Assembly (NCBI GenBank): GCA_963716725.1
Contig: CAVQUB010000034.1
Span: forward strand, 96,001 to 160,000
DNA length: 64,000 nucleotides
Origin: an uncultured delta proteobacterium
Lineage (GTDB): Bacteria > Myxococcota_A > Polyangia > Polyangiales > Polyangiaceae
Direction of reading: 5' to 3'
Made by a program: the position numbers and the translations under genes. Positions 42,689 to 61,412 of this stretch are shown in pieces. Under the pieces are notes generated by a model, which did no database searches, had not been told where the DNA came from, and worked only from the letters and a program-made list of their open reading frames with translations. Position 1 is the stretch's first letter; each line of letters starts with the position of its first letter.

Positions 42689-42754
42689 GGGGCGGGCGGG
42701 GCTGACGGGTGGGGGATCCCCCCGGTCGAACACCCCGCTGTCTGGTTGGCGATT
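42632..42754 (+). repeat. purC 3' end plus downstream spacer (resident copy)
   Basis: 123 bp, 1 mismatch to 49004-49126; related copies at 47113 and 54530. Confidence 0.95.
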
Positions 42755-42908
42755 CGGGCGTGCTCCCGCGAACGCCGGAGATCATCGTGGCAGAGCGCGA
42801 GGCGCATCCGAGCGGGCGCGTGCCGAAGACAGTGAAGGCGCCCGTGACGCGCAACGTGCGGTGAAACTCGCCTGGCCGGCGTTCGGCGGGTGGAACGGCC
42901 AGTTATGC
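42740..42908 (-). other. attC-like site with degenerate distal core
   Basis: Minus strand starts GCATAAC; inner inverted repeat cgaacgccgg/ccggcgttcg; ends ACCAGAC instead of GTTRRRY. Confidence 0.7.
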
Positions 42909-42976
42909 CGTGGTGGAACACAGAGAGCCGGGTTGCGGAGGCCGTCGGCGCAGCAACCGTGTGCCATGGTCGTCGC

Positions 42977-43798
42977 TCACCGAGACGCAAGCGCCTTGAC
43001 GAGAGTCCAGCAGTCATCGAGGGCGTCGTGGTGCGCTGTGCCCGGTTGGTCATCGAGGGTCTGGCGCATCACGACGTGGCGAAGTCCCGCACGGACGCCC
43101 TCAACAACGAACCCGCCGCCTTCTGCGACGACGCAACTCGCCTCGTGACCACCGGGACCACATACCCTGACGTGGGAATGAACGTCTCTGCTGAAGTCGT
43201 CGAGTGGCGCGGCGTTCCAGAAACCGCGGTCCATGCAGGCGTCGATTCGAGTCCACGCGGTCAGAGGAGCAGACCAGCTGTCGACCGTGTGCGCAATGCC
43301 GAGCCCGTCTCGATCCTCGCAGGGGCCCCAGCGCTTGAGACGCGCGCGACAGAGCGACGCACGACGTTCCAGTGTAACGACGCTTCCAAAAGTTCCGCCA
43401 ACAAGGAATCGATACGCGGGCGCTCCCGACGAGTCTGGCAACGTGGCCTCACCGTGCAGGAGCAACTCGCCCGCGGCGAGGCGGAGCCATCGCGCACTCT
43501 GCAGGCGGGGAGAGAGGCCTGGAAAGAGTTCCGCGGTGGTTGCCGAGTCCGCCGGAGCCGGCGGCTGATCTACGGCAATCGGCTGGGTGGGGCAGCGGGG
43601 GAGGGCCATGCGTTCGCAGCCGGGCACTGTCGCCATGGTCAGGGCGGTCAGGGCCGCGGGAAGGCGGCGCGAAGCAGCGGTTGCGGCAAGCATCAGGTCG
43701 TCGCTGATCTCGCGCAGGCGTTTCCGGTGAGAAGACAGCGGGATAACGAATCGAAATTCAGCTGCGAAGGCAGCCTCAACTTCACTGGATGCTACCAC
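42977..43798 (-). CDS. Cassette hypothetical protein (possible lipoprotein)
   Basis: Only long ORF filling the space between two attC sites; real start must lie below 43741. Confidence 0.5.
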   Translation of the reverse strand: MVASSEVEAAFAAEFRFVIPLSSHRKRLREISDDLMLAATAASRRLPAALTALTMATVPGCERMALPRCPTQPIAVDQPPAPADSATTAELFPGLSPRLQSARWLRLAAGELLLHGEATLPDSSGAPAYRFLVGGTFGSVVTLERRASLCRARLKRWGPCEDRDGLGIAHTVDSWSAPLTAWTRIDACMDRGFWNAAPLDDFSRDVHSHVRVCGPGGHEASCVVAEGGGFVVEGVRAGLRHVVMRQTLDDQPGTAHHDALDDCWTLVKALASR

Positions 43799-43866
43799 TC
43801 CAGCAGCACACCTGGGGCGCTGCGGCTGGCGGGTCAGCCTTCGGCTGCTGAAATTTCCTGTTAGAC
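43741..43866 (-). other. attC site
   Basis: Plus GGATAAC...GTTAGAC; arms aaattcagc/gctgaaattt with one extra base and cgaaggc/gccttcg. Confidence 0.85.
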
Positions 43867-43875
43867 CGCACCCGA

Positions 43876-44667
43876 CTACGCAGCGAGCAGCGCTTCCAAG
43901 TTGGTTCGATCTGAGAACGGCTGAAGCGTGCTGTACTGCTCAATCCGTTTGAGATCCTCGTCACGATAGACACGGTTGATGTCAACGCTGTCGTCCAGCA
44001 AGGTCACTCGGCTCTCTGTCGCGCCACCGGCATTGAGATCGTGCCACTTCCGGAAGACTTCGTTCGCTTGCACATGACCCGAGGAGGTCATGCGAGAGAA
44101 GAGCGTTATGATCGCCGAACGGGTGGATTTTCCGGTAACCACGAAATCAACCGGAACGGGGCCGAACTGGCCGCTCAGTTGAATGGACGGCTCATACTGC
44201 AAACTCGCGTCCGAAAGGAACTCTTCGACGTCCTCGTTGAACGGGCTTTGGAGTTGAAGGCGCTTGGTGAAGAGCAGGTCTGACATTCTCACGCACGCCT
44301 GGCCCAGGAGGACGATCCCTTCCTGCAACGAATCGTCCGTGGGCGTAACCGGCAACTCGAGGGCACCGCCGCGGAGTGAAGCCCCGTAGAGATCGATTGC
44401 TTGTTCAAGCTGGGTTCGCCGCTTCTTTGAAGTCCACGGCTGGACGTCGTGGTCGAGGAGAAATGCCATGGTCTGGCCGAGGTCGCTCAGGCGCATCGGG
44501 GGCAGAAGCGGTGCGCTGGGCTCATCAACGACGAAGACGTCGACGGACGAACCGTCGGGATAGAGAAACCCAGTCTGGATCCGGATGTGCCCCTTGGGGA
44601 GCATGTCGACCTGCCTGACCATGCAGAGGTCAGCAATTGTCTTGGCGAGGGCTGGCGCGTTTTGCAT
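43876..44667 (-). CDS. DUF1828-like protein
   Basis: IQTGFLYPDGSSVDVFV..RLSDLGQT; C-terminal VDFVV nuclease-like segment. Confidence 0.7.
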   Translation of the reverse strand: MQNAPALAKTIADLCMVRQVDMLPKGHIRIQTGFLYPDGSSVDVFVVDEPSAPLLPPMRLSDLGQTMAFLLDHDVQPWTSKKRRTQLEQAIDLYGASLRGGALELPVTPTDDSLQEGIVLLGQACVRMSDLLFTKRLQLQSPFNEDVEEFLSDASLQYEPSIQLSGQFGPVPVDFVVTGKSTRSAIITLFSRMTSSGHVQANEVFRKWHDLNAGGATESRVTLLDDSVDINRVYRDEDLKRIEQYSTLQPFSDRTNLEALLAA

Positions 44668-44679
44668 GATCGAAGCTGA

Positions 44680-45105
44680 TCAAGGGACCTCGAAGGTCCC
44701 GTTGTGATTGATGTTTGCCGCAGCGCAGAAGTCCGCAAAGACGTCTTGAATGGTTTTGCCGGAGAGGTCCGCCCGCGTCTGTACGCCATCTCGAAGGTTC
44801 CTGGCGACACTGTGGTCGTCCTGAACAGAGTGTTTGTGGGAGCGCCCGGCAGATCCGTGGCAGGCCCCATCGACGTCGAGACGACAGATCGGTCCTTCGC
44901 CAATCAGAGTGACGTTGATCGTCTTGGCGCCAGTCTCGAGATTGTAGTTGACGTTCATGACGATGTTCACGCCGCTTGGGTTGGTGATGGGGATGCGCGA
45001 GGCGGTGAGCAGGGGGTGGGTAGCCGCCTTTTCGACGAGCTTTATGTCGACATCGATCGACTTGCCGGACAAGTCGCGCAGCGCACGGAAATCTGGGTTG
45101 TTCAC
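44680..45105 (-). CDS. Hypothetical protein (DUF6978-like)
   Basis: ICRLDVDGACH..SHKH; 12 bp upstream of DUF1828 gene; start uncertain. Confidence 0.6.
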   Translation of the reverse strand: MNNPDFRALRDLSGKSIDVDIKLVEKAATHPLLTASRIPITNPSGVNIVMNVNYNLETGAKTINVTLIGEGPICRLDVDGACHGSAGRSHKHSVQDDHSVARNLRDGVQTRADLSGKTIQDVFADFCAAANINHNGTFEVP

Positions 45106-45274
45106 GCTTCGGTGATCCCGAGCGTACCTGCTCGCCACACACTCGTCCATATTGCGCCAGGGCCGGATGAAGTGTGGACTTGGACAGGACGGCGTGCCCC
45201 CGCAGGCGCACGGAAGCAGGCGCAACGACCGGCGGCGCCTGGCTTCGCTTCGTCCACTGACCGCGTCCGCGGGG

Positions 45275-46273
45275 TCAAACGATCATACGCTTGGTTTCGC
45301 GGTCCCAAGAATCAATCACCCCCGCGTAGGGCAACCTAACGTCGTTGACATCCTCCAGCGCTAGCAAACGAACACAGTTCTTTCCACGTTCCTGCCTGGG
45401 CATCAGGCGCCCCAGCCCTTTCCATCCGGCGGACTGCAGGGTGTTGTTGCACGCGCGGCGGATCACAGACGCCAAAACGTCAACCATTTGAATGCCCGTT
45501 ACCCGGTGCGACGCGCAAAACTTCATGTCGCTCAAGAGAGCGTCAATGTCCACGTAGGTGAACGGTCCGTCCGGGCCAGAGACGCGCTCGCGAAGATGCT
45601 CAGGGGGCTCGGCTCTCTGGCCCATGTACCGCTGGAAGGCCGAGTAGTCAGCGCCCTTCATGCAAGCCAACGGGGTTGAGAGCGACTGGGTTTGTAACAG
45701 GGGGCCGACAATATCTTGCCAAAGCTGCTCGTGTCGCGTGGGAGTTACATCCTTTGCGTCGAGTCGCCAGCAGAATCTGCCAAGGGCCTTTGGAATCCTC
45801 TGGCTGTAGTAGAGAGTCGAAGCGGCAAGCACGGAATGCATCAAGGTCGTGAGCAGCACGGATTGGACATATAGTTGATCCGACAGGCTGCGCACTCGCG
45901 CCGCCAAACCTTCGAGTCGAGCTCGCACGGTTGATGCCATCGCGGGTGTCACGCTCGCGAGGATCTTTACGGCCTGCTCTTCCTTGTGGGACGAGATGCC
46001 TTGCCCGGTATGTATGCCCATGTCGATCACGGTCGCGATCAGAAGGATATCCAACCGCCGAATCGTGCGGATCACCTCCGCCATCTGCGCCTCCAAGAGT
46101 TGGCTTCCCTTGACCTCGCGGCCGCCGACTTTCCAGGGCTTGGTCACCCGGCGGAACTTCCGAAAGAGCGTTGTCGCTAGACTCTCGGGAACAACCAAGG
46201 CCGCGACGCAGGAGACCGCATTCGGTCTGGGCGGTATCTGAAAGGCACCTGCTTCGTCGATGAAGATGTACAT
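45275..46273 (-). CDS. DUF3800 family protein
   Basis: MYIFIDEAG, EVKGS, GIQMVDVLAS. Confidence 0.8.
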   Translation of the reverse strand: MYIFIDEAGAFQIPPRPNAVSCVAALVVPESLATTLFRKFRRVTKPWKVGGREVKGSQLLEAQMAEVIRTIRRLDILLIATVIDMGIHTGQGISSHKEEQAVKILASVTPAMASTVRARLEGLAARVRSLSDQLYVQSVLLTTLMHSVLAASTLYYSQRIPKALGRFCWRLDAKDVTPTRHEQLWQDIVGPLLQTQSLSTPLACMKGADYSAFQRYMGQRAEPPEHLRERVSGPDGPFTYVDIDALLSDMKFCASHRVTGIQMVDVLASVIRRACNNTLQSAGWKGLGRLMPRQERGKNCVRLLALEDVNDVRLPYAGVIDSWDRETKRMIV

Positions 46274-46364
46274 CGTCGATGCTGTCCTCACCTTGAGTCC
46301 GACCGAAGGTTCTCGGGAGCACCACGCGGCGATGAAGCAAGGGCGTTCATGTACGGTTCGGCCG

Positions 46365-47113
46365 GTCTAACTGGCGTTCTCCCTCGAACGCCGGTGGCAA
46401 TGTTAGCGGAAGACACCGCCGCGGGCACCAGCTCAGCGACCCAGCGCCTCCCGCACCCGAGCGAGCGCCTCCGGCAGCGCACGCTCGACCAGTTGCGCTT
46501 CCAGCCGAAGCACGCGGTAGCCGAGCGTCGTAAGCCTGCGGTCGCGCCGAGCATCCGCCGCGCCACGACCGCGGTGTGCGCTGCCGTCCACCTCGATGAT
46601 GAGCCGCCGGGCGGGCACCACGAAGTCGGCGATGAATTCCCCGACCACCACCTGGCGCCGCACCTCGACTCCGAGTTGGTGCGCGCGAAGCACGCGCCAC
46701 AGCGCGGCCTCCGAGGCCGTGGGCGCCGCGCGCATCGCTGCGGCGCGGGCGGCAAGGAGCTGTTGGCGGCGGAGCTGTTGGCGGTCGCGAGCGAGCATGG
46801 TTCCTCCGAGGCCCGGCGTGGTGGGCGGGCTTCGCGGCCCAGGGCGCACGATCTGTGACACGCCGCCCTTTGCGCTCGCTCGGAGGCGCCGGCTCTCGTG
46901 CTCAGTGCGTCGCGCCTGGTGAAAACGCGGCGTGGCGCAGAGCGTGCGCCGCTGAGCGGAGCCCGACCGCCGCGCCGGGCCGAGGCCCACCCGGCTCGCA
47001 TGCGTCACCTCACCGGGAGCGCGACAACCACGCGAACGCGTCCCCCTCAATCGCGCTGCGCGCGATTGGGGGGGGACCGCCGAGCGCAGCGAGGCGAGGG
47101 GGGGCAACCCGAG
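46365..47113 (-). mobile_element. DUF559/hairpin element copy 1 (complete)
   Basis: Half attC + DUF559 gene + leader + hairpin 47040-47077 + GGGGGGGCAACCCGAG; collinear with 48260-49004. Confidence 0.8.
46433..46798 (-). CDS. DUF559 (Vsr-like) endonuclease
   Basis: MR..PT.SE..LW, RRQ, IADF, IEVDG..H, D..RD..L...GYRVLR; GGAGG RBS. Confidence 0.92.
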   Translation of the reverse strand: MLARDRQQLRRQQLLAARAAAMRAAPTASEAALWRVLRAHQLGVEVRRQVVVGEFIADFVVPARRLIIEVDGSAHRGRGAADARRDRRLTTLGYRVLRLEAQLVERALPEALARVREALGR

Positions 47114-47172
47114 TGCCGAATACCGAGGAGCCGATCGCGCGGATGCGGAGGAATCTGGGGATTGGGGGGTGA
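47113..47172 (+). repeat. Orphan purC 3' end (VPNTEEPIARMRRNLGIGG*)
   Basis: In-frame variant of purC C-terminus VPNTEEPVGRMRRNLGIG*. Confidence 0.9.
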
Positions 47173-47492
47173 GGGGCGGGCGGGGGTGACGGTGCCCTGG
47201 CTCCGGTGGCTGGGGATCACATGGTCTCAACGGATTCCAGCAACCTGCCCTGGAAAGAGAGCGGTGCGGCGAGTTCGCCCGGCCGACGCGGCACGTGGCA
47301 CCGGCCGGGCAGAGGGCGGCACCGGATGAGCGGAAACTGACGAGCGGCCGCGAGGTCGACGCGGAGGGGACTTGCGTCGGTTGGGGGTGCGATTCGGCCG
47401 GCAGCGCGCAGACCGCTGCACCGACCAGGAACACGAGCAGCACAACGCATCTGACACCAGGGCTTTGGGCGTCTTGGGAATGTGTTCAGACC

Positions 47493-47576
47493 GGAGAACG
47501 ATCTGGCTTTCACCTGCAGGCGACCGAAGGAGCGCAGCGACCGACGGCGACTCTCACGTGCAACAGCATATTAGGC
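47493..47576 (-). other. Degenerate short attC site
   Basis: Plus GGAGAAC..ttcacctg...cacgtgcaa..ATTAGGC; 7 bp after the stop of the upstream cassette gene. Confidence 0.6.
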
Positions 47577-47583
47577 CGTCTCC

Positions 47584-48204
47584 CTACTGGGATGAGAGTT
47601 CTTCTGCGTAGCGTCCAGCTGCGATCCTCCGCGCAGCGTGAGCGAGGTCACGGAGAAGATCGGCAAGCTCATCCCAGCTCAGTGAGGTCTTGGCGCAGTG
47701 GAGCCCGTCGTTGGCGAGCCAGAGAGCTTGTGGGTGACCTTCGGGAAGCTGCTCTGGAAGGTAGTGCTTGCTCAAATTGTACAGCTGATTGAGTCGACTT
47801 GCCGGACTCTCGTCGCTCTTCTCGAAGAGGCGCTGGCCCGTGACTCGCGCGCCCACATCGAGACCCTGGTAGAGCGTCGCCAAGGCATGCTCAAGGTGTG
47901 ACAACGCTTCGAAGTAGACACCAACTCCGCGGGACTTCGTCTTGTCTCCGCTCAAGTACTGGTTCACCGCGTCGACCCCCGCATCGTGCGCGAGTATGCT
48001 GCTACTGCTGCGCCTGATTACAGCGAAGGCGAGTTGCGTTCCCCTGGGGCTGCATGGCGCGCTGAAGACTGAATTGAGGACGAACTGCTGTAACCAGTGG
48101 GCGCCGTCCGCGAACTCGTCCCGGAGCGGCTTCGCCGAACAGGCGCCCAAGAGCGAGAGTTCCTGTGAAACGAAGGTATCGAGAGCAAAGTTGCTGAGCG
48201 GCAT
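47584..48204 (-). CDS. Cassette hypothetical protein
   Basis: 206 aa ORF filling the space between attC-like ends. Confidence 0.75.
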   Translation of the reverse strand: MPLSNFALDTFVSQELSLLGACSAKPLRDEFADGAHWLQQFVLNSVFSAPCSPRGTQLAFAVIRRSSSSILAHDAGVDAVNQYLSGDKTKSRGVGVYFEALSHLEHALATLYQGLDVGARVTGQRLFEKSDESPASRLNQLYNLSKHYLPEQLPEGHPQALWLANDGLHCAKTSLSWDELADLLRDLAHAARRIAAGRYAEELSSQ

Positions 48205-48241
48205 CGCTTCTTCTGGCCCAGGGACCGCGGGATGTGGAGTC

Positions 48242-49004
48242 AGCTAACGATCGCCCTGGCTGGCGTTCTCCCTCGAACGCCGATGGCAATGATAGCGGAA
48301 GGCACGGCCGCGGGCACCAGCTCAGCGCCCCAGCGCCTCCCGCACCCGGGCGAGCGCCACCGGCAGCGCGCGCTCGACGAGCTCCGCTTCCAGCCGAAGC
48401 ACGCGATAGCCGAGCTTCGCGAGCTTGCGGTCCCGCCGAGCGTCAGCGGCGCGGTGTGCGCGGTGTGCGCTGCCGTCCACTTCGATCACGAGCCGCACGC
48501 AAGGCACGACGAAGTCCGCGATCAGCCCGCCGTTCACCACCTGGCGGCGCACTTCGACTCCGAGTTGGTGCGCGCGAAGCACGCGCCAGAGCGCGGCCTC
48601 CGAGGCCGTTGGCGCGACACGCATCGCGGCGGCGCGGGCGGCAAGGAGCTGTTGGCGGCGGAGCTGTTGGCGGTCGCGAGCGAGCATGGTTCCTCCGAGG
48701 CCCGGCGTGGTGGGCGGGCTTCGCAAGCCTTGGCGCACGATCTGTGACACGCCGCCCTTTGCGCTCGCTCGGAGGCGCCGGCTCTCGTGCTCAGTGCGTC
48801 GCGCCTGGTGAAGGCGCGGCGTGGCGCAGAGCGTGCGCCGGTTAAGCGCAGCCCGCCCGCCGCGTCGGGCCGAGGCCCACCCGGCTCGCATGCGTCACCT
48901 CACCGGGAGCGCGACAACCACGCGAACGCGTCCCCCCCAATCGCGCGCAGCGCGATTAAGGGGGGGACCGCCGAGCGCAGTGAGGCGAGGGGGGGCAACC
49001 CGAG
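48242..49004 (-). mobile_element. DUF559/hairpin element copy 2 (complete)
   Basis: Same layout as copy 1; hairpin 48930-48968. Confidence 0.8.
48322..48687 (-). CDS. DUF559 (Vsr-like) endonuclease
   Basis: 121 aa; 15 substitutions vs copy 1 by manual count. Confidence 0.92.
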   Translation of the reverse strand: MLARDRQQLRRQQLLAARAAAMRVAPTASEAALWRVLRAHQLGVEVRRQVVNGGLIADFVVPCVRLVIEVDGSAHRAHRAADARRDRKLAKLGYRVLRLEAELVERALPVALARVREALGR

Positions 49005-49126
49005 TGCCGAATACGGAAGAGCCGGTTGGGAGGATGCGGAGGAATCTGGGAATTGGGTGAGGGGCGGGCGGGGCTGACGGGTGGGGGATCCCCCCGGTCG
49101 AACACCCCGCTGTCTGGTTGGCGATT
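49004..49126 (+). repeat. Orphan purC 3' end plus spacer
   Basis: 122/123 identical to 42632-42754. Confidence 0.95.
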
Positions 49127-49263
49127 GAGGCGTTCAGCAGCGAACGCCGAGAGTCATCGCAGCAGACCGCGCGCTTGCCGCAGACAGCGAGGGCGTCCGC
49201 GACGCGCGACGGACGGGGAAACTCGCCTGGCCGGCGTTCGGCGGGTGCAACGCCAAGTTAGAC
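49112..49263 (-). other. attC-like site with degenerate distal core
   Basis: Minus GTCTAAC contains the TAA stop of the upstream ORF; ends ACCAGAC. Confidence 0.75.
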
Positions 49264-49650
49264 AGCGCCAGTGAGCTCCTTGTAGCGCCAATAGGATTCG
49301 AAAAAGGCATCGTGGAGCATGGCGCGGTCGTCGTCGTCGGTAGGTTCAACTAGATCCAGCCCAAGCCAGTCCGCGCAGGGGACGAGTTCCGGATCGCCTA
49401 CGCCGTCGATCAAACAGAACAAGCGGAAGATCGTTGTCGCACACGCATCGGCAACGACCTTCTGGAGGGCCGAGTGGGCGTCCGGGGACAAGCCCAGCGT
49501 CTGCAGTGCACGGAGTTCCGAGTCGGACAGCACGGGCTCCGGCGGGTAGCCGACCTTGGCGGAAGCGCGCCCCAGACCCTCGACCGCCTCGCACGCGGCG
49601 TCACGAATCAATCGGTGGACTTCGACGAGGAGAGCATCACGAGGGGTCAT
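49258..49650 (-). CDS. Cassette hypothetical protein
   Basis: 130 aa; stop inside attC core, ATG 15 bp after the previous attC. Confidence 0.8.
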   Translation of the reverse strand: MTPRDALLVEVHRLIRDAACEAVEGLGRASAKVGYPPEPVLSDSELRALQTLGLSPDAHSALQKVVADACATTIFRLFCLIDGVGDPELVPCADWLGLDLVEPTDDDDRAMLHDAFFESYWRYKELTGAV

Positions 49651-49665
49651 GAGGAACGCCCGGCT

Positions 49666-49831
49666 GTATAACGAGAGTGGCGTTCACTCGCGAACGCCGG
49701 AGGACATCGTAGCAGAGCGCGAGGCGTGGCAGAGGCGGGCGAGTGCCGAAGACAGGGAGGGCGCCCGCGACGCGGAACGGACGGTGAAGTCGGCAAGGCC
49801 GGCGTTCGACGGGTGGGACGGCAAGTTAGAC
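49666..49831 (-). other. attC site (long family)
   Basis: Plus GTATAAC...GTTAGAC; inverted repeat cgaacgccgg/ccggcgttcg. Confidence 0.85.
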
Positions 49832-49849
49832 AGCCCTCGCGCCGCTCGT

Positions 49850-50197
49850 TCACTCCGCCGGCGCGTCCGTTGCCCCGGCGTCGCAGGGGTTGAGGCTGAG
49901 GCTGCTGCTGGTGAGCGTGCAACTCCATGTCCCGGTCGGGCAAGAACAAGCGTACTGCCTGAGCCCCGTCACGTACTGCACTCCGGGTTCGCAAAGAAAC
50001 TGGACCGAAAGCGAGCAAGCGGCGCCGGTGACGCACCCACCGTTCAACAGCTGGTGGACGATGGCGCCATCCGCGGGACAGCTTGGATCGATTGGAGTTG
50101 GCGCGGCATCAGGACCCTTTCCGGTCGCGGAATTGTCGTCTGCGCAGCCGGACAGAAGCAGCGCAGGAATCGAGAGGCGGCAGATCAGGGAGCGCAC
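49850..50197 (-). CDS. Cassette Cys-rich lipoprotein
   Basis: LLSGC lipobox; fills the cassette. Confidence 0.72.
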   Translation of the reverse strand: MRSLICRLSIPALLLSGCADDNSATGKGPDAAPTPIDPSCPADGAIVHQLLNGGCVTGAACSLSVQFLCEPGVQYVTGLRQYACSCPTGTWSCTLTSSSLSLNPCDAGATDAPAE

Positions 50198-50216
50198 TGA
50201 ACCTTCCCGGTGGCCT

Positions 50217-50381: not shown

Positions 50382-50432
50382 CGCTCTGCGAAGCGCCTCG
50401 ACCGACTGCACATGAGTTGTCAGAATCAACGG

Positions 50433-51297: not shown

Positions 51298-51319
51298 CCG
51301 AAGGGGTGGGACTTCCAAG

Positions 51320-53767: not shown

Positions 53768-53777
53768 TGGTGTTGCC

Positions 53778-53873: not shown

Positions 53874-54185
53874 CGCTGTAGCCAACTCGAGAAAGCACGT
53901 ACGAAGTTCCTGCTCGACGGCCGGCGTCGGAACTCCAGCCGAGGCGAGGAAGTCAGCGAATAGAAGGAGCGTTCCGTAAAGATCTTCACCGTCAGTCGGG
54001 TACAGCGCGCAGATCACGGCGCGGACGGCAGCAGCGTGCGACGGATCTGAGGCGGCATCAACGAAATGCCAGCACGCAACGCGCGCGTTCACGACATCCG
54101 CTAGCGGTTGGGTTCCGTGGTGATAGTCCCGAATCACGAGCAGTGCGGTGCGAGCGGTCTCCGGCAGGCCCTCCTCAATAAGCCG
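53868..54185 (-). pseudogene. 5'-truncated cassette gene (immunity-protein-like)
   Basis: ARVACW..AVRAVICALYP; stop in attC; 5' end replaced by the element leader. Confidence 0.55.
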
Positions 54186-54530
54186 GTTTCTCCGAGGCCC
54201 GGCACCCCTTCGAGTGTCACGAAGCGCGTCGTGGTGGGCGGGCTTCGCGATCCCTGGCGCACGATCTGTGACGCGCCGCCCGTTGCGCTTCGCTCGGAGG
54301 CGCCGGCTCTCGAGCTCGGGACGTCGCGTCTCGCAGGCGCGCGGCGTGGCGCAGACCGTGCGCCGCCGAGCGGAGCCCGACCGCCACGCAGAGCCGAGGC
54401 CCACCCGGCTCGCGCACGTCACCTCAGCGGGAGCGCGGCGACCACGCGAACGCGCCCCCCCAATCGCGCGCAGCGCGATTAAGGGGGGGACCGCCGAGCG
54501 CAGTGAGGCGAGGGGGGGGGGCAACCCGAG
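54186..54530 (-). mobile_element. DUF559/hairpin element copy 4 (leader and hairpin only)
   Basis: Collinear with ~46800-47113; hairpin 54454-54491; nuclease gene absent. Confidence 0.8.
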
Positions 54531-54623
54531 CGGAGGAATTTGGGGATCGCGGGGTGAGAGGCGGGCGGGGGGAACGGGTGGGGGATCCCCCCGGTCGAAC
54601 ACCCCGCTGTCTGGTTGACGATT
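54530..54623 (+). repeat. Shorter orphan purC 3' end (RRNLGIAG*) plus spacer
   Basis: Matches ~42664-42754 with substitutions. Confidence 0.85.
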
Positions 54624-54778
54624 GAGGCGTTCGGCAACGAACGCCGAGACGAAGGGTATCAGACCGCCGAGCGTTTTCGAGACGGCGCGTGCCGCAACAA
54701 ATTGGGCGCCGGCCGCCGCGGAACGGACGGTGATGCTCGCCACTGCCGGTGTTCGGCGGGTGCAACGTCCAGTTATGC
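54609..54778 (-). other. attC-like site with degenerate distal core
   Basis: Minus GCATAAC...ACCAGAC, same family as 42740 and 49112. Confidence 0.72.
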
Positions 54779-54783
54779 GGTAC

Positions 54784-55077
54784 TCAGCCTCGCGTTTGCC
54801 AGGTTGCCGGGTGGCGCTTGCCGTGAGCGACTGCGACGATCGCGATCAAGTCGGGATAGACCCGATAGTACACGCCATACGGGAACCGGTTGAGGACCGT
54901 GCACCTCAGGCCGCGATACCGGACAGCGAACGAAGTCGGACCTTCGCCGATCTGGCGGACGGCGTCGTCGAGTTCAGCGCGAAACACGAAACCGAGCCCA
55001 GCGCCTTGAGTCTCGTACCACTGGAACGCCTCGAGCGCGTCGACCTCGGCCTCCGTCGTGAAGACGACTGGGGTCAA
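54784..55077 (-). CDS. RelE/ParE family toxin
   Basis: WYE....LG..F, RFPY.VYY, AVAH.KR.P..W; TTG overlaps antitoxin stop. Confidence 0.88.
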   Translation of the reverse strand: MTPVVFTTEAEVDALEAFQWYETQGAGLGFVFRAELDDAVRQIGEGPTSFAVRYRGLRCTVLNRFPYGVYYRVYPDLIAIVAVAHGKRHPATWQTRG

Positions 55078-55289
55078 CGTTTTCCGGTCGTCATGCGAGC
55101 CCGGACCTGGTCCCAAGGCACGCCGGTCGGGCCCTCCCGATCAAGACGATCGAGTCGTCGGTCCAGCTCAGCGCGAAGCTCCGACGAAAGCGGGAGGTCC
55201 TCGGGCTTGAAGCTGCCCCAGAGTTCGTCGATAAGATCGAGCTTCTCGTCGGCGGTGAGATTCGAGATGTCCACGGCAGGTTTCGCCAC
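55074..55289 (-). CDS. Addiction-module antitoxin (TIGR02574-like)
   Basis: LT..EKL.LI.ELW.S, ELDRRL, VPW.QV. Confidence 0.88.
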   Translation of the reverse strand: MAKPAVDISNLTADEKLDLIDELWGSFKPEDLPLSSELRAELDRRLDRLDREGPTGVPWDQVRARMTTGKR

Positions 55290-55367
55290 CCCCGCATGAT
55301 GCCTCCGGTGGGAAGATCGCGCCAGAACCACCAACCGCGAAGGTGCAGCCATGGCTACCATGCGGCC

Positions 55368-55532
55368 GGATAACGAGACACACGTTCACCCGCGAACGCC
55401 GAGCGTCAAGTCGTCAGTCGGCAAGGCGCAACAGACGCGGGCGAGTGCCGCATCAGAATGTTCGCCCGCGGAAGCGGAACGGACGGTGAAGTCGGCAAGA
55501 CCGGCGTTCGGCGGGTGCAACGTGAGTTATGC
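55368..55532 (-). other. attC site (long family)
   Basis: Plus GGATAAC...GTTATGC; 159/165 identical to 50217-50381. Confidence 0.88.
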
Positions 55533-55584
55533 AGCCTCAACCACGACTCGAATGGTTCGGCGGCGCGAAGCACCACGTCTGAGC

Positions 55585-56364
55585 TCATCGCGTGAACTCT
55601 CGCGACAACGTCGCGAGCACGTCGCCAAACGTCTCTTTGATTTTGCCTTTGGAGTACCGAATTTGCTGAATGCCCTGAACATTGCTGAACTCCTCGCACC
55701 CTTCCTCGAGCAGCAAGATTGTGTTTCGGAAGCCCAGCCGCCCTTGGAACAACCCTGCCTCGTGGACAACGTTCTGGCGCGCACGAAGTGTTCCATCGGC
55801 CAGTTCGTCTTCGGCCGTCAGAACTAGCAACGCGAACGCAGAGGTGCTCAGCATTTCTTCGAGTACGTCGCGGACGGTGTGCCCGGCCCGGGCGCCGCTC
55901 TCGAATGCTTGCACCGGGTAGCCGTGGAGCTCGTGTAGGTGATCCTTCAGGTCGCGCCACTGCGCGCTCCTTCCGTGCCCGATGAAGAGTACGGGCTTTG
56001 CACGCTTCGCTGGGGCCGGCTGTGGAATGCGCTTCGCAGCCGAAAGCGCGCTCTCGAAAATTGCGAACAGACTTTCGATTGTTGCACGGGAAGCGGCGCT
56101 GACGGAGGTGCGCGTGCGCCAGCCCCAAGCCGTCTTGCCGTCCGAAGAGCCCTGGTACGCGCCATACGCGCCGACGCTGACAGCCAGGGCGTCCCCACGA
56201 AACATGACGCGGGAATCCCCGCGGGACCGCCTGTAGTCGGCGGCAAACTCGGGAAACGAGTCGTGGTCCCACTCGGCGCCATCAACGGTGATCACGAGAG
56301 ACAGGGGCGCACATGACTCGTCCAGCCTTTGGCACTCCTTCAGCACGCTTTCCAGTGTTTCCAC
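55585..56364 (-). CDS. Nucleotide-binding TIR-like (Cap12/Pycsar-type TIR) protein
   Basis: LFIGHG, FALLVLT.ED, RARQNVVHEAGLFQGRLG, FSNVQGI. Confidence 0.88.
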   Translation of the reverse strand: METLESVLKECQRLDESCAPLSLVITVDGAEWDHDSFPEFAADYRRSRGDSRVMFRGDALAVSVGAYGAYQGSSDGKTAWGWRTRTSVSAASRATIESLFAIFESALSAAKRIPQPAPAKRAKPVLFIGHGRSAQWRDLKDHLHELHGYPVQAFESGARAGHTVRDVLEEMLSTSAFALLVLTAEDELADGTLRARQNVVHEAGLFQGRLGFRNTILLLEEGCEEFSNVQGIQQIRYSKGKIKETFGDVLATLSREFTR

Positions 56365-56440
56365 CCCGAAGTGGGTGAAGTCGAATACCTTGGTCTTCCG
56401 CTCGGGACTTCTCAGTGAGCGGGTCGCTCTCGCGCGGTCC

Positions 56441-56606
56441 GCCCAACGGTTTGGCGTTCACCCGCGAACGCCGAGACCAAGAGATACCAGAGAGCGCGGC
56501 GGTGCACACGCGGGCGAGTGCCGCAGAACGAAGGGTGCACGCGGCTGTGGAACGGACGGTTCAGAGCGGTACGGCCGGCGGTCGGCGGGTGCAACGTGAG
56601 TTAGGC
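56441..56606 (-). other. attC site (long family)
   Basis: Plus GCCCAAC...GTTAGGC; cgttcacccgc/gcgggtgcaacg. Confidence 0.88.
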
Positions 56607-56636
56607 GGCGTCAAGAACACGTGGTAAGTTTGGGGA

Positions 56637-56846
56637 ATGCGCACGTACACGGCAGTCGTGGAACGAGACGCCGACACCGGCTGGTACGTCGGCCACGTAC
56701 CGGGTTGGCCCGGTGCGCACTCGCAAGGCGCGACAGAGGACGAGCTCCGTCGGAATCTCGAGGAAGTCATCGCGATGCTCCTCGAGGATGGCGAGCCGAC
56801 GCTCGAGTCAGAGTTCGTGGGGACGCAGACAGTCCGGGTTGCGTAG
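56637..56846 (+). CDS. hicB: HicB antitoxin
   Basis: YTAVVERD..TG.YVG.VPG.PGAHSQG.T..EL..NL.EVI. Confidence 0.92.
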   Translation: MRTYTAVVERDADTGWYVGHVPGWPGAHSQGATEDELRRNLEEVIAMLLEDGEPTLESEFVGTQTVRVA

Positions 56847-56849
56847 GAC

Positions 56850-57074
56850 GTGGGTGACGTTCCCGTTCTGAAACCGCGCGAAGTGGTCGCGATCCTGGCT
56901 CATCTAGGCTTCGCTGAGGTGCGACAACGCGGCTCGCACAAGCAATTTCGCCACTCGGATGGGCGCGTCACGACAGTGCCGGTTCACACGGGTCGGGACA
57001 TCTCGCCAAGCCTGGTACGCCAGATCGCGCGCGACATTGGTATGGACGTGCGCGATTTCATCGCGCAGCGGTGA
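56850..57074 (+). CDS. hicA: HicA toxin
   Basis: LGF.EVRQRGSH.QFRH.DGR.TTVPVH. Confidence 0.93.
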   Translation: MGDVPVLKPREVVAILAHLGFAEVRQRGSHKQFRHSDGRVTTVPVHTGRDISPSLVRQIARDIGMDVRDFIAQR

Positions 57075-57093
57075 CGAGGGTCGCCGGGAGTCC

Positions 57094-57210
57094 GCCCAAC
57101 TGGCGTTCTCCCTCGAACGCCGGGCTCCCACATCCCCCGAGGCCACTCCGCTTCCGAGACCGCGCGCGACGCGCGAAAGAACTGACCATGCCGGCGCGGC
57201 CGCTGGCGGG
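57094..57210 (-). other. Partial attC (same arm as the element-associated half attC)
   Basis: Plus GCCCAACtggcgttctccctcgaacgccgg; opposite core missing. Confidence 0.6.
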
Positions 57211-57285
57211 TCCTCCCGGGGAAATTCGTGGCCATGGAGTTTCGGGCCCCCACCCACCCCGCGTGGGCTGGAAAAAAGGGAGGAT

Positions 57286-57599
57286 GGCAGCTCGGGCCGG
57301 TCCCGGATTCGAGCCCATATTCCTTCAGCATCGCTCCCTGCCTGGGCCAGTTTGCCGACGACCCAAGCTACCACCTGCCCGCTGTCTGCATGTCCGCTGT
57401 GTCCGTCGAGGCCACCCCGCTCTGGGACGTTGGGCTCAACGAGGGCCGCTGCACCCTGGAGCCCGGGAAGACCTACTACCTCAACACCATCAGCGCCGTT
57501 CTGCCAGATTTGACGACCACCGCGTGCAAGCGAGACGACTATTGCTCCACACCAGTCGATTTCGGCGGCACCGTCGGCTGGCCTTCGCAGGCCCCGTGA
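57286..57599 (+). pseudogene. C-terminal fragment of a Cys-containing secreted protein
   Basis: Host-like codons, CTLEPGKTYYLN; no convincing 5' end. Confidence 0.4.
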
Positions 57600-57658
57600 T
57601 GGTCAAGGGTTGAGGCGGCCCCGTTGAAGCGCTGCCCACCGGTTCCCTCTGGTCCGGA

Positions 57659-58033
57659 GTGTTGGGTGCGGCCGCGGTGGTGGCGCTGATCGCGGTGGTG
57701 GCGCTCATCATCATCTACGCGCGAGCGCCGGCGGAGGGAGCGGTACCTGCCGAACCGTCCGTAGAGATCAGCGGCGCGTCGAACGAGTCGAGCGAAGCTG
57801 CCATGTCGACGCTGTCCGACGCCACCGCCGGCCCTGGACCCATTGCAACTGCGGCTGCGGTCGCCCCGACGCCAACGCCAGCCAGTGCGCCGCCGCCTGC
57901 CACGCCTGGTGTTGTTCCGCCGGGACCCAAGCGTCCGCCCACCGTGCGGCCGCCGAAACCAAAACCGAACTGCGCACCACCGTACACCTTGGACAAGGAC
58001 GGCGTGCGCATTCCGAAACGGGAGTGTTTTTAG
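57659..58033 (+). pseudogene. Myxobacterial Ser/Thr-kinase-type C-terminal tail without kinase domain
   Basis: TM, Pro-rich linker, CAPPYTLDKDGVRIPKRECF. Confidence 0.6.
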
Positions 58034-58067
58034 ACGGCGCGGATCCCTCGCTGCATGCGCAAACCGT

Positions 58068-58766
58068 TCACGCCGGCTCTTGCCGCGTCCACAGCCCGGT
58101 CCACTCGGGCACTCGCGCCCAGCCGCGCGCAAGCACTTTGGTTGCCAGTTCCGGTCCGAAGAAGAAGCCCAAGCAGCGGGCGGCGGACGCAGCATCGTCG
58201 AACGCGTAGTCCGTCGCGAACTGCCTCCGCTCGAAGCCCTGCTGCTCCAGCCAGGCGTAGTACTCGCCAAGGCGCTCGTTCGGCGGCGCTGCCGCTTCCT
58301 CTGCGGTGCCCAAAGTCTCAATCACCGCCAGCGTTCCTCCGGGAATCACCACGCGCCGCATCTCCGAGAGCGCTTGGGCGATGTGCGTCCTCCAGCCCGC
58401 TTCCTCCCAATAGCGGAAGTGCCCAAAGACCCAGCCGGCCACAGCGCCGTGCATGCTGTCGTTTTCGAACGGCAACGCGCGCCCGTCGCCGAGCGTGAGT
58501 TCGAGCTGGTGCGGGACGTACTCCGCGAGCTGGGTCCGAGCCACGTCCAACATAGCGGCTTCCGGCTCAAGGGCGACTACCTGTGCCCCCTGTTCCAGAA
58601 GCAAGCGGGAGACCCGGCCCGTGCCCGCGCCAACATCCAGCAGTCTGCCTGGCACGCTGCTGAAGATGTCGCACAGCGCATGCCTCAGGTTGTCGTCCGC
58701 GTCCTCTGCGGTCACCAGCTCGTGATAGCGGTCCGCGTGGTTCCGATAGACTTCACGAAACTCCAT
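58068..58766 (-). CDS. Class I SAM-dependent methyltransferase
   Basis: LDVGAGTG, GDGRALPF, R...PGG. Confidence 0.9.
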   Translation of the reverse strand: MEFREVYRNHADRYHELVTAEDADDNLRHALCDIFSSVPGRLLDVGAGTGRVSRLLLEQGAQVVALEPEAAMLDVARTQLAEYVPHQLELTLGDGRALPFENDSMHGAVAGWVFGHFRYWEEAGWRTHIAQALSEMRRVVIPGGTLAVIETLGTAEEAAAPPNERLGEYYAWLEQQGFERRQFATDYAFDDAASAARCLGFFFGPELATKVLARGWARVPEWTGLWTRQEPA

Positions 58767-58998
58767 GCTGGGACCTCGCAGCGAAGGGCTACGGAGTCAA
58801 TCTAGTTTCGCGCGCCATACCTAGCGGAAGGAAAGGTCGACGTTGGCTTCACGCACGGGTCCTGTTGGCGCGTGCCCAGCTTGGATGTCGTAGTTCACAC
58901 CTCGCCCTCGTCAGCGAGCCGCGTGCCAAGCAGGTGACGCCAGAATTTCCCGTGACTCCGCTCGCCCTCCAGGTGGCGAACTGGCGAAGTCTGACACG

Positions 58999-59277
58999 AT
59001 GAGTTTCGAATTGAATGAGGTCTCCGAGGGCGCAACTGGCACCGTGCAAGCCTACGTCGGAGTGTCTGGGCCTAGTTCCCAGCAGGGATGGCGGACTCCA
59101 GCGGGCGCTTGCACGATTGATGTCACCGAGCACACGGTGGTTGATGACAACTATCAGGACATGCGCGAGTACCGAATCGGGGGTACGGGCTCCTGCGACC
59201 AGGGCGCGTCTGGCACGTCGGGAATCGTGGACATCGGCGCGTTTTCCATGCGTGGCGTTCTCTTCTGGGAGAAGTGA
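58999..59277 (+). CDS. Short hypothetical or C-terminal fragment
   Basis: 92 aa beta-rich ORF. Confidence 0.35.
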   Translation: MSFELNEVSEGATGTVQAYVGVSGPSSQQGWRTPAGACTIDVTEHTVVDDNYQDMREYRIGGTGSCDQGASGTSGIVDIGAFSMRGVLFWEK

Positions 59278-59494
59278 CCGATCCCGCGCGAGCCCCCCGA
59301 ACGTCTTGCCGCTCAGCCGCAAGCACCAGCAGAGTCGACTCCACGAGACCGCCCCGGAGGGGGTCTCGTCGCTCGCGCGCGGGACCTAGACGACCATCTG
59401 TTCGCAGTGCACCTTCTATCGCGGTGTGAGGGCGGTGGTGGCGTCCACGCGGCGCCGAGGTTCGCAAGAACCGAGGCGCTAAGCCCCGCGCGCA

Positions 59495-59557
59495 GGGCGG
59501 AACGAACAGCAGCCAGTCGGAAAGCCCGCGGTCGTCTGCTGCAACGTCCTGTTAGGC
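59495..59557 (-). other. Partial attC
   Basis: Minus GCCTAACaggacgttgcagcagacg with upstream stop in core; distal end not recognisable. Confidence 0.55.
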
Positions 59558-60040
59558 ATCCTCGGCGCCTTCGTCGTAGATCCTTGAATAGTTACCGAAC
59601 TCGGTACCCTTCAAATCGGTGGCGACGACCTGTTCCGCGACGTCATAGTCGACGACGTAGCAGCACACTTCCATCGTGTCCGAGCCAATACTTCCACCGT
59701 CGCACATGCCGAGCCCCGTCCACCCCAACGTTTGGTCCATCCTGTCCTGCAATCGGTATCGCTTCTTCAAATCGGCAGCATCCCCGAATCCGTCGACGGT
59801 GTATTCAATCAAGAGGATCCGGTGGTCATCGAGTTCGATTGGTTGGTAACCATCACTCACGAAACGATCAATCTCCGCCTGGACCTTCGTCTCGACCTTG
59901 CGCAGCCCGGTCGACCTAACCGTCTTGGATTCGCCTTTCGCGCCCAGACTTCCCCAATGCACCGTGTGAGAACCGTCGTCGTTGTCCCACGTTTCCCAGT
60001 AGAGAATCTGGCTCGGGGTGCGCCTATAAAGCTTTAGCAC
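59552..60040 (-). CDS. Cassette hypothetical protein (WGR-like N-terminus)
   Basis: YWETW..HWG.LG..G; LGWTGLG.CDGG; stop in attC core. Confidence 0.8.
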   Translation of the reverse strand: MLKLYRRTPSQILYWETWDNDDGSHTVHWGSLGAKGESKTVRSTGLRKVETKVQAEIDRFVSDGYQPIELDDHRILLIEYTVDGFGDAADLKKRYRLQDRMDQTLGWTGLGMCDGGSIGSDTMEVCCYVVDYDVAEQVVATDLKGTEFGNYSRIYDEGAEDA

Positions 60041-60053
60041 CTGCTTGATGCCT

Positions 60054-60210
60054 GCCTAACTGGCGTTCTCCCTCGAACGCCGGTGGCAACGATAGCGGAA
60101 GACACGGCCGCGGGCACCAGCTCACCGGCCCAGCGCCGCCCGCACCCGCTCGAGCGCCACCGGCAGCGCGCGCTCGACGAGCGCAGTGAGGCGAGGGGGG
60201 GCAACCCGAG
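60054..60210 (-). mobile_element. DUF559/hairpin element copy 5 (internally deleted, both ends kept)
   Basis: Half attC + last codons of DUF559 fused at CGAGC (60178-60182) to the terminal gcagtgaggcgagggggggcaacccgag. Confidence 0.8.
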
Positions 60211-60251
60211 CGGAGCAGCTTGGTGATCGTGGGTGCTGAGGCAACAGCGAC

Positions 60252-60974
60252 TTACTCCGCGGGGTTGGAAGATCGGATTGCCTCCCACCCGAACGTCTTG
60301 GCCTGATGGACCCAGTCAAGCTCGGCAAGAACGGCTTGGCTGCCGAGCTCGCTTGCATGCTTCCACTGGTCCTCGGTCAGCGGGACGAGCTGCAGCAAAT
60401 TGAGCTCCATCGCGCCGTCGAGCTCGCCGGTAGTAGCCAGCAGATAGCGCTCGTCTTCTTTTCGCTTCTGCCGGTTTGGGAAGTCGAGCATCTCGGCGGG
60501 CTCGGTTGCCGGAACGATCACGAAGTGAAGCAAGTCATGAAACGCGGCGCCCCACAGATCGAATGCCTTGAACGCCAAATCGCCGGGGCCAGCTGTGGCG
60601 ACATCGTGAGCCAACATGAACAAGAACTCCGCGACTCGCGCGTCTCGCTTTGGCGAGTACGCGATCAGTTCGAGATGCGGCATCACGCCCTCAGCGCGTT
60701 GCGGGACGAAGGCGAGGCCCGCGCTGAGGTACGTCCAATACTCGCGGCCCTCGGACTGACCAAACTCCAACACGAGAAAGTCTGGCCGATTCGGCAACTC
60801 CATCCCGGGGTTCGGTTTCCACTCGTCCGTCGGGTCTCCCAAGAAGTCGATCACGTGAGATATCCAGCGAGCGCGGGCGCCCCATTGCGCGGAGAGCATC
60901 CAGTCCGGAACGCGCGCAGTCGCCGGTTCGGCGCCGACGGTTTGCTTTTTCTTCTTACGGAACCAGCCCAGCAT
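60252..60974 (-). CDS. Suppressor-of-fused (SUFU)-like immunity protein
   Basis: WTYLSAGL, LELIA, LLQLVPLTEDQW. Confidence 0.7.
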   Translation of the reverse strand: MLGWFRKKKKQTVGAEPATARVPDWMLSAQWGARARWISHVIDFLGDPTDEWKPNPGMELPNRPDFLVLEFGQSEGREYWTYLSAGLAFVPQRAEGVMPHLELIAYSPKRDARVAEFLFMLAHDVATAGPGDLAFKAFDLWGAAFHDLLHFVIVPATEPAEMLDFPNRQKRKEDERYLLATTGELDGAMELNLLQLVPLTEDQWKHASELGSQAVLAELDWVHQAKTFGWEAIRSSNPAE

Positions 60975-61127
60975 GCCTGGTACTCCCTCGTCCCCACGAG
61001 GTTACCGCATTCGCCTGCAAGGTTCCGAAGAGGCGCGGGGGCGCGGGGGCGCGGGCACGCGGGGCCACGCGTGCCGGCGACACGGTCGGAAGATGGAACG
61101 AAATGCTCGGACATGCGGGCCAGCCCG

Positions 61128-61355
61128 CAGCGCGGCCTCCGAAGCCGTGGGCGCCGCGCGCATCGAGGCGGTGCGGCCGCCAAGGACCTGTTGACGACGG
61201 AGCTGTTGATGGTCGCGAGCGAGCATGGTTCCTCCGAGGCCCGCCGGGCTCGCTCGGCCGCGACAACTCCACGCGAACGTGTCCCCCCCGATCGCGCGCA
61301 GCGCGATTGAGGGGGGGACCGCCGAGCGCAGCGAGGCGAGGGGGGGCAACCCGAG
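61128..61355 (-). mobile_element. DUF559/hairpin element copy 6 (5' 33 codons, shortened leader, hairpin)
   Basis: MLARDHQQLRRQQVLGGRTASMRAAPTASEAAL at 61226-61128; hairpin 61281-61319; same terminus. Confidence 0.8.
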
Positions 61356-61412
61356 CGCGTATGGCGATCGCGGCTCTGGATCAACGCGTCTGCTGCAACG
61401 GGCAGCCCCCCG

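Follow-up and report, generated by a model that had tools for sequence, protein, structure and literature searches.

Clusters of attC sites lacking an integron integrase (CALINs) are a known and common kind of genetic element. The counts given for RefSeq comprise 2961 CALINs and 2760 complete integrons, with almost 6 attC sites per CALIN, and the same source presents CALINs as proposed degraded integrons (PMC9024848). In this work we analyze a window of 64,000 nt from an uncultured member of the Polyangiaceae (contig CAVQUB010000034.1, positions 96,001-160,000; coordinates count from the start of the window), in which the 19-kb interval between the purC and tex genes carries open reading frames (ORFs) that lie mostly on the minus strand, many of them without a family match, with repeats between them. 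We propose that this region is very probably a CALIN: a chromosomal array of integron cassettes for which the 64-kb window encodes no integron integrase. Like the CALINs defined by IntegronFinder, it combines at least two attC sites in the same orientation with cassette ORFs between them, no integrase gene (intI) nearby and signs of decay. It differs from them in being larger than average, with nine full sites plus remnants, in keeping attI-like junctions, and in consisting of repeated modules, each with a gene of the DUF559 family and a copy of the purC 3′ end.

The array also resembles the sedentary chromosomal integrons of Vibrio and Xanthomonas, with which it shares a fixed chromosomal site in related genomes (here purC), homogeneous and lineage-specific attC sites (seven of nine in one family) and variable cassettes rich in toxin-antitoxin pairs. 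Xanthomonas integrons lie beside ilvD, often with a decayed intI; the window departs from sedentary integrons in having no intI, attC sites of about 165 nt and a Polyangiaceae host. A further comparison is offered by elements that target integron sites, such as the IS1111-attC group and the group IIC-attC introns, which insert into attC sites and encode a transposase or a reverse transcriptase. The DUF559 unit is likewise a gene-bearing unit repeated at recombination junctions, but its position is at attI-like junctions, its sole product is a Vsr-like nuclease of 121 aa, and no terminal repeats were found in it. Finally, an atypical layout in which intI is transcribed toward attI has been described for Treponema (PMC3607928). 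As in integrons of the Treponema denticola type, the intI of a related locus described below (L037) lies on the cassette strand and is transcribed toward attI, a layout seen in that locus only, whereas the window has DUF559 at the corresponding position.

Integrons appear to be little described in this lineage. A myxobacterial study that ran IntegronFinder reports no cassettes in its own myxobacterial genomes (PMC13616975), and in the literature searched we found no paper on CALINs or attC sites in Myxococcota showing such an arrangement. The analysis documents what is probably a sedentary integron-type cassette array in Polyangiaceae, with a long (~165 nt), lineage-specific attC family and an anchor at purC. 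Its toxin-antitoxin and candidate phage-defence cassettes fit the current view of arrays as stores of such functions, and the recurrent grouping of DUF559, attI-like junction and purC 3′ copy provides a concrete lead on the origin and growth of integrase-less arrays.

attC sites and their relatives

Within 42.7-60.1 kb of the window we identified two direct-repeat families, a right arm in eight copies and a left arm in seven. The full repeat spans about 165 nt and reads, on the plus strand, as left arm, some 90 variable bases and right arm. The left arm consists of an RYYYAAC core, a spacer of 8-9 nt and a stem segment with the consensus CGTTCACCCGCGAACGCCG, and the right arm comprises the consensus CCGGCGTTCGGCGGGTGCAACG, a spacer of 3-4 nt and a GTTA[G/T]RY core. 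As judged from sequence and predicted structure, these repeats are attC sites of a lineage-specific family.

Relatives of the array were retrieved by scanning a species-representative genome collection once with a 20-base right-arm pattern, which yielded 39 loci (named by L numbers, and excluding the window's own genome), 20 of which were used as representatives for comparisons. Of these 39 loci, 33 derive from Polyangiaceae, Myxococcales or Myxococcota contigs of metagenome-assembled genomes (MAGs), including one contig binned as Phycisphaerales. That contig (L015, 4188 nt) and the start of the Polyangiaceae contig of L003-L005 agree in the positions of their three pattern matches and are identical, without gaps, at 3372 of 4188 positions; the two are probably one sequence placed in two bins. 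The six single-match loci from other phyla (L011, L013, L021-L024) gave no blastn match to the window attC sites and were taken as chance. Among the 20 representative loci, 14 contain between 2 and 23 tandem-oriented copies of the window attC by blastn, at a spacing of 0.4-1.6 kb.

We located 51 full-length sites in 10 of the relatives' loci and, dropping five near-duplicates and one short site, aligned the remaining 45, all from related Polyangiaceae/Myxococcales genomes and none from the window, as the training set of a covariance model. Run over the whole window without filters, the model returned nine matches with E-values from 2.9e-08 to 1.6e-42, all on the plus strand and all within 42744-56606; outside the array, in the other 45 kb of the window, no match was better than E 0.18. 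The original prediction had left the judgement of its sites to an attC covariance model, and nine were accepted, with their strands separated, by a model that is family-specific and is not the one used by IntegronFinder. The best site scores 185 bits on the plus strand and 23.5 bits on the minus strand, minus-strand echoes in general reach at most 23.5 bits, and the hairpins in the leaders of the DUF559 units obtain E-values of 0.007 to 0.7.

Seven of the nine sites form one homogeneous family scoring 92-185 bits. Four of them, at 49666-49831 (139 bits), 50217-50381 (166.7 bits), 55368-55532 (185.4 bits) and 56441-56606 (122.1 bits), are of the ordinary type, and three are of a terminal type in which GTCTGGT replaces the left core, at 42744-42908 (109.3 bits, E 1.9e-24), 49116-49263 (91.8 bits) and 54613-54778 (106.6 bits). 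The other two share with the family only the cores and the hairpin plan: a heterologous site of 126 nt at 43741-43866 (GGATAAC...GTTAGAC; 42.9 bits, E 1.1e-08) and a short site of 96 nt at 53778-53873 (GCCTAAC...GTTAGAC; 41.1 bits, E 2.9e-08, fold z -3.8). Both cores (RYYYAAC ... GTTA[G/T]RY) are thus present, as inverse core and core, in six of the nine sites, and T occupies the fifth position of the right core in three sites (GTTATGC). Beyond these sites, the repeat families identify right-arm remnants at 51809-51834 (following a DUF559 leader-end fragment) and 53444-53495, a right-arm-like remnant at 61375-61408, and, at 59524-59557, the right arm of a degenerate attC site, missed by the covariance model, whose core is complementary to the core at 60054; all lie on the plus strand. 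Segment 59385-59557 was also considered as a full attC site and rejected (z -0.8, 9 bits), and only its right arm was kept. An earlier count of about 12 imperfect palindromes, some of them partial, was therefore fair as regards the nine full sites and the partial ones, but four of those palindromes are attI-like junctions and not attC sites.

The alignment of the relatives' 45 sites supports a conserved fold. Over 33 pairs, standard pairs make up 96.4% of the cells, a share that falls to 29-42% once the partners are shifted along; changes on both sides occur in six pairs (18 cells), and the covariation score was reached by none of 500 shuffles. The arms form a 19-pair stem in which four pairs show compensatory changes and two single bases are bulged out on the plus strand's 3′ arm, in line with the extrahelical bases noted in the original prediction. 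In canonical attC sites the recombining bottom strand carries extrahelical bases on its 3′ arm. The position of the bulges therefore gives the plus strand the geometry of a bottom strand, and the cassettes are read on the minus strand, as the ORFs are. Folding with DNA parameters also pairs the two arms, with the plus strand more stable in eight of the nine sites folded. A search of the whole window against Rfam at the gathering threshold gave no match, and the attC sites thus belong to no curated RNA family.

The identity of the family is anchored by a relative with an integrase. On contig JAXLYN010000049.1 (L032/L037), 23 sites in the window's orientation and one last cassette are followed by a tyrosine recombinase of 404 aa on the cassette strand (L037:10652-11866), which scores 440.1 bits on the TIGR02249 'integron integrase' model (cutoff 265) over model positions 3-315 of 315. 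An RYYYAAC core (GTATAAC) lies 8 nt past the intI stop codon, at the boundary of the first cassette, and is an attI by position. This association of the attC family with both IntI and attI was found in L037/L032 only; because the window's repeat family reaches a true IntI and attI there, the window repeats can be read as attC sites. Two further integrases among the relatives were discarded as integron integrases, one in L038 that lies beside an IS91-type transposase (182.9 bits on TIGR02249, below the cutoff of 265) and one in L016 (21.8 bits). Upstream of the L037 intI, just before pntB, L037:11990-12200 contains about four tandem units of ~20 nt and a repeated segment of ~45 nt.

An alternative reading would take the repeats as a palindromic intergenic family, similar to repetitive extragenic palindromes (REP) or miniature inverted-repeat transposable elements (MITE), that merely resembles attC sites. 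The bare heptamer GTTRRRY is in keeping with it, being found 61 times in the window against 57.9 expected, a count reached by 39 of 100 shuffles, and hence not enriched; so are the spacers between core and stem, which are asymmetric (8-9 nt on the 5′ arm, 4-5 nt on the 3′ arm), and the site length of about 165 nt, which exceeds the usual attC range of 57-141 nt. Against it, the repeats are confined to the array, run in a single orientation and separate units of one to three genes, the family ends at a true IntI and attI in L037, neighbouring cores are complementary across cassettes, and the heterologous and short sites have nothing but the cores and hairpin plan in common with the rest. The heptamer matches that begin with GTTA number 12, every one of them within 43860-60060, whereas of the 30 matches before position 42000 none begins with GTTA. 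We regard this reading as very improbable and retain the interpretation of the repeats as attC sites.

Integrase, attI-like junctions and core matching

The array is bounded at its distal end by purC (SAICAR synthetase; 41687-42688, plus strand, PF01259 at 217.7 bits), which constitutes a conserved chromosomal flank, and on the other side by tex (61929-64000, plus strand, Pfam Tex domains, running off the window), at the end at which one would expect intI. G+C content is about 67% along the whole window. The array adjoins purC not only in the window but also in L002 and L012, at a conserved location; gene order upstream of purC is syntenic between the window and L002, purC DNA identity is 83-86% between the window and two of the relatives' MAGs, which puts the window within or close to the Polyangiaceae, and the site nearest to the real purC has no left core in any of the three (window, L002, L012). 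The presence of purC beside the arrays of two relatives suggests that this location is old and chromosomal. At the opposite end, an ORF without family match (61413-61829, minus strand) is the last gene before tex, and only 99 bp separate its end at 61829 from the start of tex at 61929, close to the 110 bp or so estimated beforehand for the place where intI and attI would be expected.

Searches for an integrase were negative throughout the window. With the L037 IntI as query, tblastn over the 64 kb in six-frame translation gave a best E-value of 1.0, Pfam detected no Phage_integrase domain among the 63 window ORFs, and blastn with the upstream and 3′ regions of the L037 intI returned a best E-value of 0.007 in the window, for a match inside tex. 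A remnant of intI in the DUF559 leader or before tex was considered and rejected (tblastn E at least 1). The window thus holds no intI with an integron-specific domain beside an attI, as a complete integron does, and it holds nine clustered attC sites, where a CALIN has at least two, with no integrase beside the cluster. An attC array without integrase in the window is a CALIN by definition, and this array has lost its own integrase or never had one. The original prediction of a CALIN between purC and tex is sustained in these terms, with an attC family that ends at IntI in a relative and neither intI nor a remnant of it in the window.

Several observations weigh against this interpretation. 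Fold z-scores of the plus strand against simple shuffles range from -0.8 to -4.9 and are only modest. The covariance model, being specific to this family, establishes homology to the relatives' repeats and is not proof of recombination, and the link to IntI depends on one contig of one MAG. The left core, at which crossover would take place, is missing from three of the nine sites, which are therefore possibly inactive. The largest gap between sites amounts to 5.2 kb (43866 to 49116; the others are at most 3.4 kb), and the default clustering distance of IntegronFinder is 4 kb, so that the program might report two CALINs. Lastly, core matches within the same site are about as good in the window as those between neighbouring sites, and recent IntI activity is accordingly not shown there.

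Four sites of the array with a left core only, at 46365, 48254, 57094 and 60054, consist of the core followed by TGG CGTTCTCCCTCGAACGCCGG and do not score as attC. We interpret them, with moderate confidence, as putative attI-like junctions. The first (46365-46410) reads GTCTAAC, TGG and CGTTCTCCC... and was recognized in alignments with the attI/intI-3′ junction of L037; the second (48254-48300) has a degenerate core, the third (57094-57123) has no DUF559 gene after it, and the fourth opens the stretch 60054-60245, which also holds a DUF559 unit with an internal deletion and a degenerate copy of the purC 3′ end. The four share the core, three bases (NNN) and CRTTCTCCC with the L037 attI, the link to the window being made by chained similarity via L014, L028 and L002. 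A core, three bases and CRTT.T.CC recur at the L037 attI/intI-3′ junction and at the left ends of DUF559 units in L002, L014 and L028; the L037 attI is 88% identical to L028:324-355 over 33 nt (blastn, E 1.2e-4), and direct blastn of the L037 attI against the window gave nothing below E 0.19. A reading of the left-core-only sites as short attC sites (core, hairpin and GTTAGCG) was rejected, the second core being GATAGCG in two of three copies and the score 6.8 bits.

Cassettes would have been inserted and shuffled by an IntI-type tyrosine recombinase cutting the core between G and TT, as presumably occurs in the intI-bearing relative. Right cores in L032 complement the left core of the next site exactly at 11 of 21 junctions and that of their own site in 2 of 22 cases, next-site complementarity being the expected outcome of a crossover within the core. 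Of eight junctions in the window, two show an exact next-site match (43866 to 46365, with the core at 46365 perfectly complementary to the right core at 43860, and 59557 to 60054), and the other six have 1-3 mismatches.

These matches also bear on the possibility that the array is one of several in a complete working integron, with an intI elsewhere in the genome acting in trans, and hence live and not a relic. Present-day movement of cassettes would indeed require an IntI encoded elsewhere in the genome. Both exact core matches of the window fall at attI-like junctions, as expected for cassettes inserted at attI, and both cores are kept in two thirds of the sites. Moreover, the related genome STL-MYX14 has an intI-linked array on contig 49, a purC-linked array on contig 67 and further arrays on contigs 31 and 112; however, MAG contigs come without order, so that contigs 49 and 67 may form one array. 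The host-genome data bearing on a trans-acting IntI are those of the 64-kb window, and the remnants, internal deletions and transposase fragment in the array point to decay. We consider a live array served in trans to be a genuine possibility that falls somewhat short of being probable, and continue to describe the region as a CALIN.

DUF559 units, purC 3′ copies and the growth of the array

At three of the four attI-like junctions a DUF559 gene comes next, oriented as intI is in L037. The two intact copies lie on the minus strand at 46433-46798 (PF04480, 86.2 bits) and 48322-48687 (79.6 bits), both well above the PF04480 cutoff of 20.6 as expected of DUF559/Vsr-like endonucleases, and the 121-aa product is related to the 'endonuclease-like protein' of PDB 3HRL (E 5.3e-11). 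No tyrosine or serine recombinase catalytic domain was found in it, the only matches being to the DUF559 and REase_MTES_1575 families. Nothing therefore shows that DUF559 serves the array, and the idea of the original prediction that a DUF559 element does so is unsupported as regards a recombinase role, the protein having a Vsr-like endonuclease fold only. The gene does, however, occupy a genuinely fixed position beside attI-like junctions. Decayed DUF559 units detected through the repeat families comprise a leader-end fragment (51661-51770), a leader without ORF (54220-54528), a truncated, internally deleted unit (60084-60212) and a DUF559 5′ part with leader remnant (61125-61357, the leader part being 61246-61357) that joins non-purC DNA, all on the plus strand.

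Each intact gene is preceded by a long leader (46799-47113 and 48688-49003, minus strand), and over its 315 nt the leader is better conserved between the copies than the ORF (293/311 against 323/369 identical positions). Nested inverted repeats in the leader end just before the ribosome-binding site and are accompanied by a GC hairpin (47042-47074 in the first copy) whose stem covaries between lineages. Counterparts occur in relatives at L028:2502-2863, L030:4735-5073 and L014:1-272. The leader belongs to no curated RNA family (no Rfam match for 46300-47250 at E up to 1), and a scan of 46300-49300 for promoters and terminators returned none of either. It may act as a structure for DNA recognition or as a cis-regulatory RNA not described before. 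Inverted repeats that by eye seemed to terminate the DUF559 unit were absent from the repeat search, and the idea was dropped.

A fragment of the purC 3′ end, 24-57 nt in length, directly follows each DUF559 unit. The first copy (47113-47172) holds the last 19 codons and the stop codon; the second (49004-49115) and the shortened third (54529-54612) also carry the spacer and the coreless terminal attC site that follow the real purC, the second being 92% identical to 42632-42799; the fourth (60213-60245) is degenerate, and a trace remains at 51768-51800. All lie on the plus strand. The same arrangement of DUF559 unit and purC fragment is seen in L030, L028 and L014, with 87, 30 and 5 nt of purC, respectively. 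The L030 fragment is closer to the purC of its own genome than to that of the window, and the copy at 47113 retains states of the relatives' purC sequence no longer present in the purC gene of the window. The C-terminal tail of purC is present in the relatives' real genes too, which indicates that the end of the gene is the source from which the fragments were copied.

Read on the cassette strand, the array is thus made of modules that run from a purC 3′ end (as its reverse complement) through leader, DUF559 gene, attI-like junction, cassettes and terminal attC to the next purC 3′ end. The module recurs about six times, decaying toward tex, where the last unit (ending at 61357) joins DNA other than purC. 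In this layout the place of intI beside the attI-like junction would be taken by the DUF559 gene with its long conserved leader. Given the recurrence of DUF559 unit, cassettes, terminal attC and purC 3′ copy, the most likely course of growth is that the entire locus was repeatedly duplicated or re-inserted. The layout is explained equally well by tandem duplication of the locus via unequal crossing-over followed by cassette turnover and by an element that carries a purC 3′ end of its own and inserted repeatedly at that of the gene. A crossover of the IntI type where DUF559 unit and purC 3′ copy meet was rejected, as no GTT occurs at the junction points. It is possible that the DUF559 nuclease would make the initiating breaks.

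A stronger version of this idea, which we think improbable, holds that the DUF559 unit is a selfish endonuclease element that targets the attI/purC-3′ junction and spreads by break-induced copying. That the element would also drag along cassettes and the purC 3′ end, displace intI and build the modules belongs to the same reading and is equally doubtful, as is its extension to the purC-linked Polyangiaceae arrays at large, which would represent, in what seems an unlikely case, a second form of integron platform with DUF559 and its structured 315-nt leader in the place of intI, driving growth. If true, breaks at the attI/purC-3′ junction that are repaired by copying whole modules would amount to a new, recombinase-independent mode of array expansion. 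Several features agree with such an element. DUF559 lies beside attI-like junctions, in the L037 intI orientation, at three sites in the window, in MAG.220 (L002, L030) and in a groundwater MAG (L014, L028), and in three genomes the unit borders, at its other end, on a fragment of the purC 3′ end, with varying junction points; where the genome's own purC was on hand, in MAG.220 and the window, the fragment resembles it. Purifying selection acts on the ORF, with a dN/dS of 0.23 for the pair of intact copies and also for the comparison with L028, and the subfamily is abundant in the lineage, with 352 homologues at E up to 1e-10 in Polyangiaceae/Myxococcales MAGs and metagenomes, often on contigs shorter than 2 kb.

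Other features argue against it. The protein has a Vsr-like nuclease fold and no known activity, target or mobility, and neither terminal inverted repeats nor target duplications were found at the unit. All loci were fetched with the attC pattern, so that the association between DUF559 and arrays is biased by sampling, and in the literature searched no paper links DUF559 with integrons or describes a DUF559-attI-purC arrangement, the single paper that mentions both DUF559 and integrons being unrelated. Plain tandem duplication by unequal crossing-over between repeats would explain the same layout.

Cassette genes and neighbouring features

Each cassette of the window contains one to three genes, with a reading direction that leads along the minus strand away from tex and toward purC, and many of the genes encode toxin-antitoxin or candidate phage-defence functions. 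Three minus-strand ORFs (49258-49650, 53868-54743 and 59552-60040) end within a site, their stop codons falling on the TTA of the GTTAGAC/GTTAGGC cores at 49257, 53867 and 59551, as had been noticed at the outset. Cassette content varies between genomes, only 9 of the 27 window ORFs having a match in the 20 representative loci. A HicB/HicA cassette (56637-57074, plus strand, Pfam) is common to the window and L027, with 84-86% amino-acid identity and different neighbours.

Starting from purC, a three-gene cassette on the minus strand (43876-46291) carries PDC-M24B-like, PDC-M24A-like and DUF3800-like genes, with a DUF1828 match and a DUF3800 match below the Pfam cutoff. The PDC-M24 candidate defence pair (43876-45225) scores 120.7 bits for B and 30.4 bits for A in PADLOC, and the cassette, 2.5 kb in length, is bounded by the heterologous attC site and an attI-like junction. 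Two minus-strand ORFs without family match follow at 47217-47513 and 47584-48204, and the ORF at 49850-50230 (minus strand) is partly common with L018. Directly after an attC site, the ORF at 50426-51241 (minus strand) has a transposase DNA-binding domain only (PF14706, 51.6 bits), located N-terminally, and is probably the remnant of an insertion sequence (IS) in the array. A DUF6910/DUF6929 gene recognized by Pfam on the opposite strand (52183-53148, plus) lies between the right-arm remnants at 51809-51834 and 53444-53495, unlike an ordinary cassette.

Toward tex, a ParE toxin and antitoxin cassette (54784-55361, minus strand; PF05016, PF09720) is followed by a TIR-domain cassette (55585-56364, minus strand; PF10137 at 89.2 bits, PADLOC PDC-S35/PycTIR). 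A 2.4-kb block of mixed orientation without attC sites (57124-59523) is flanked by an attI-like junction on one side and a solitary right arm on the other and comprises two plus-strand ORFs without family match, a minus-strand methyltransferase (58068-58766) and one more plus-strand ORF; it may be an insertion that split a site. A SUFU-like ORF (60252-60974, minus strand; PF05076 at 29.3 bits) lies beyond the fourth junction.

Among the relatives, arrays are broken or bounded by insertion sequences, which include an IS91-type Y2 transposase with a XerC-like recombinase, IS66 and IS21 istA/istB, at L038:2673-4697, L038:13830-16530, L016:1710-4003 and L027:1-2525. Past the distal end of the L030 array, L030:13344-18827 encodes a Schlafen/AlbA_2 protein and a large ResIII/HsdR-like helicase-nuclease, which are neighbours of the defence type.

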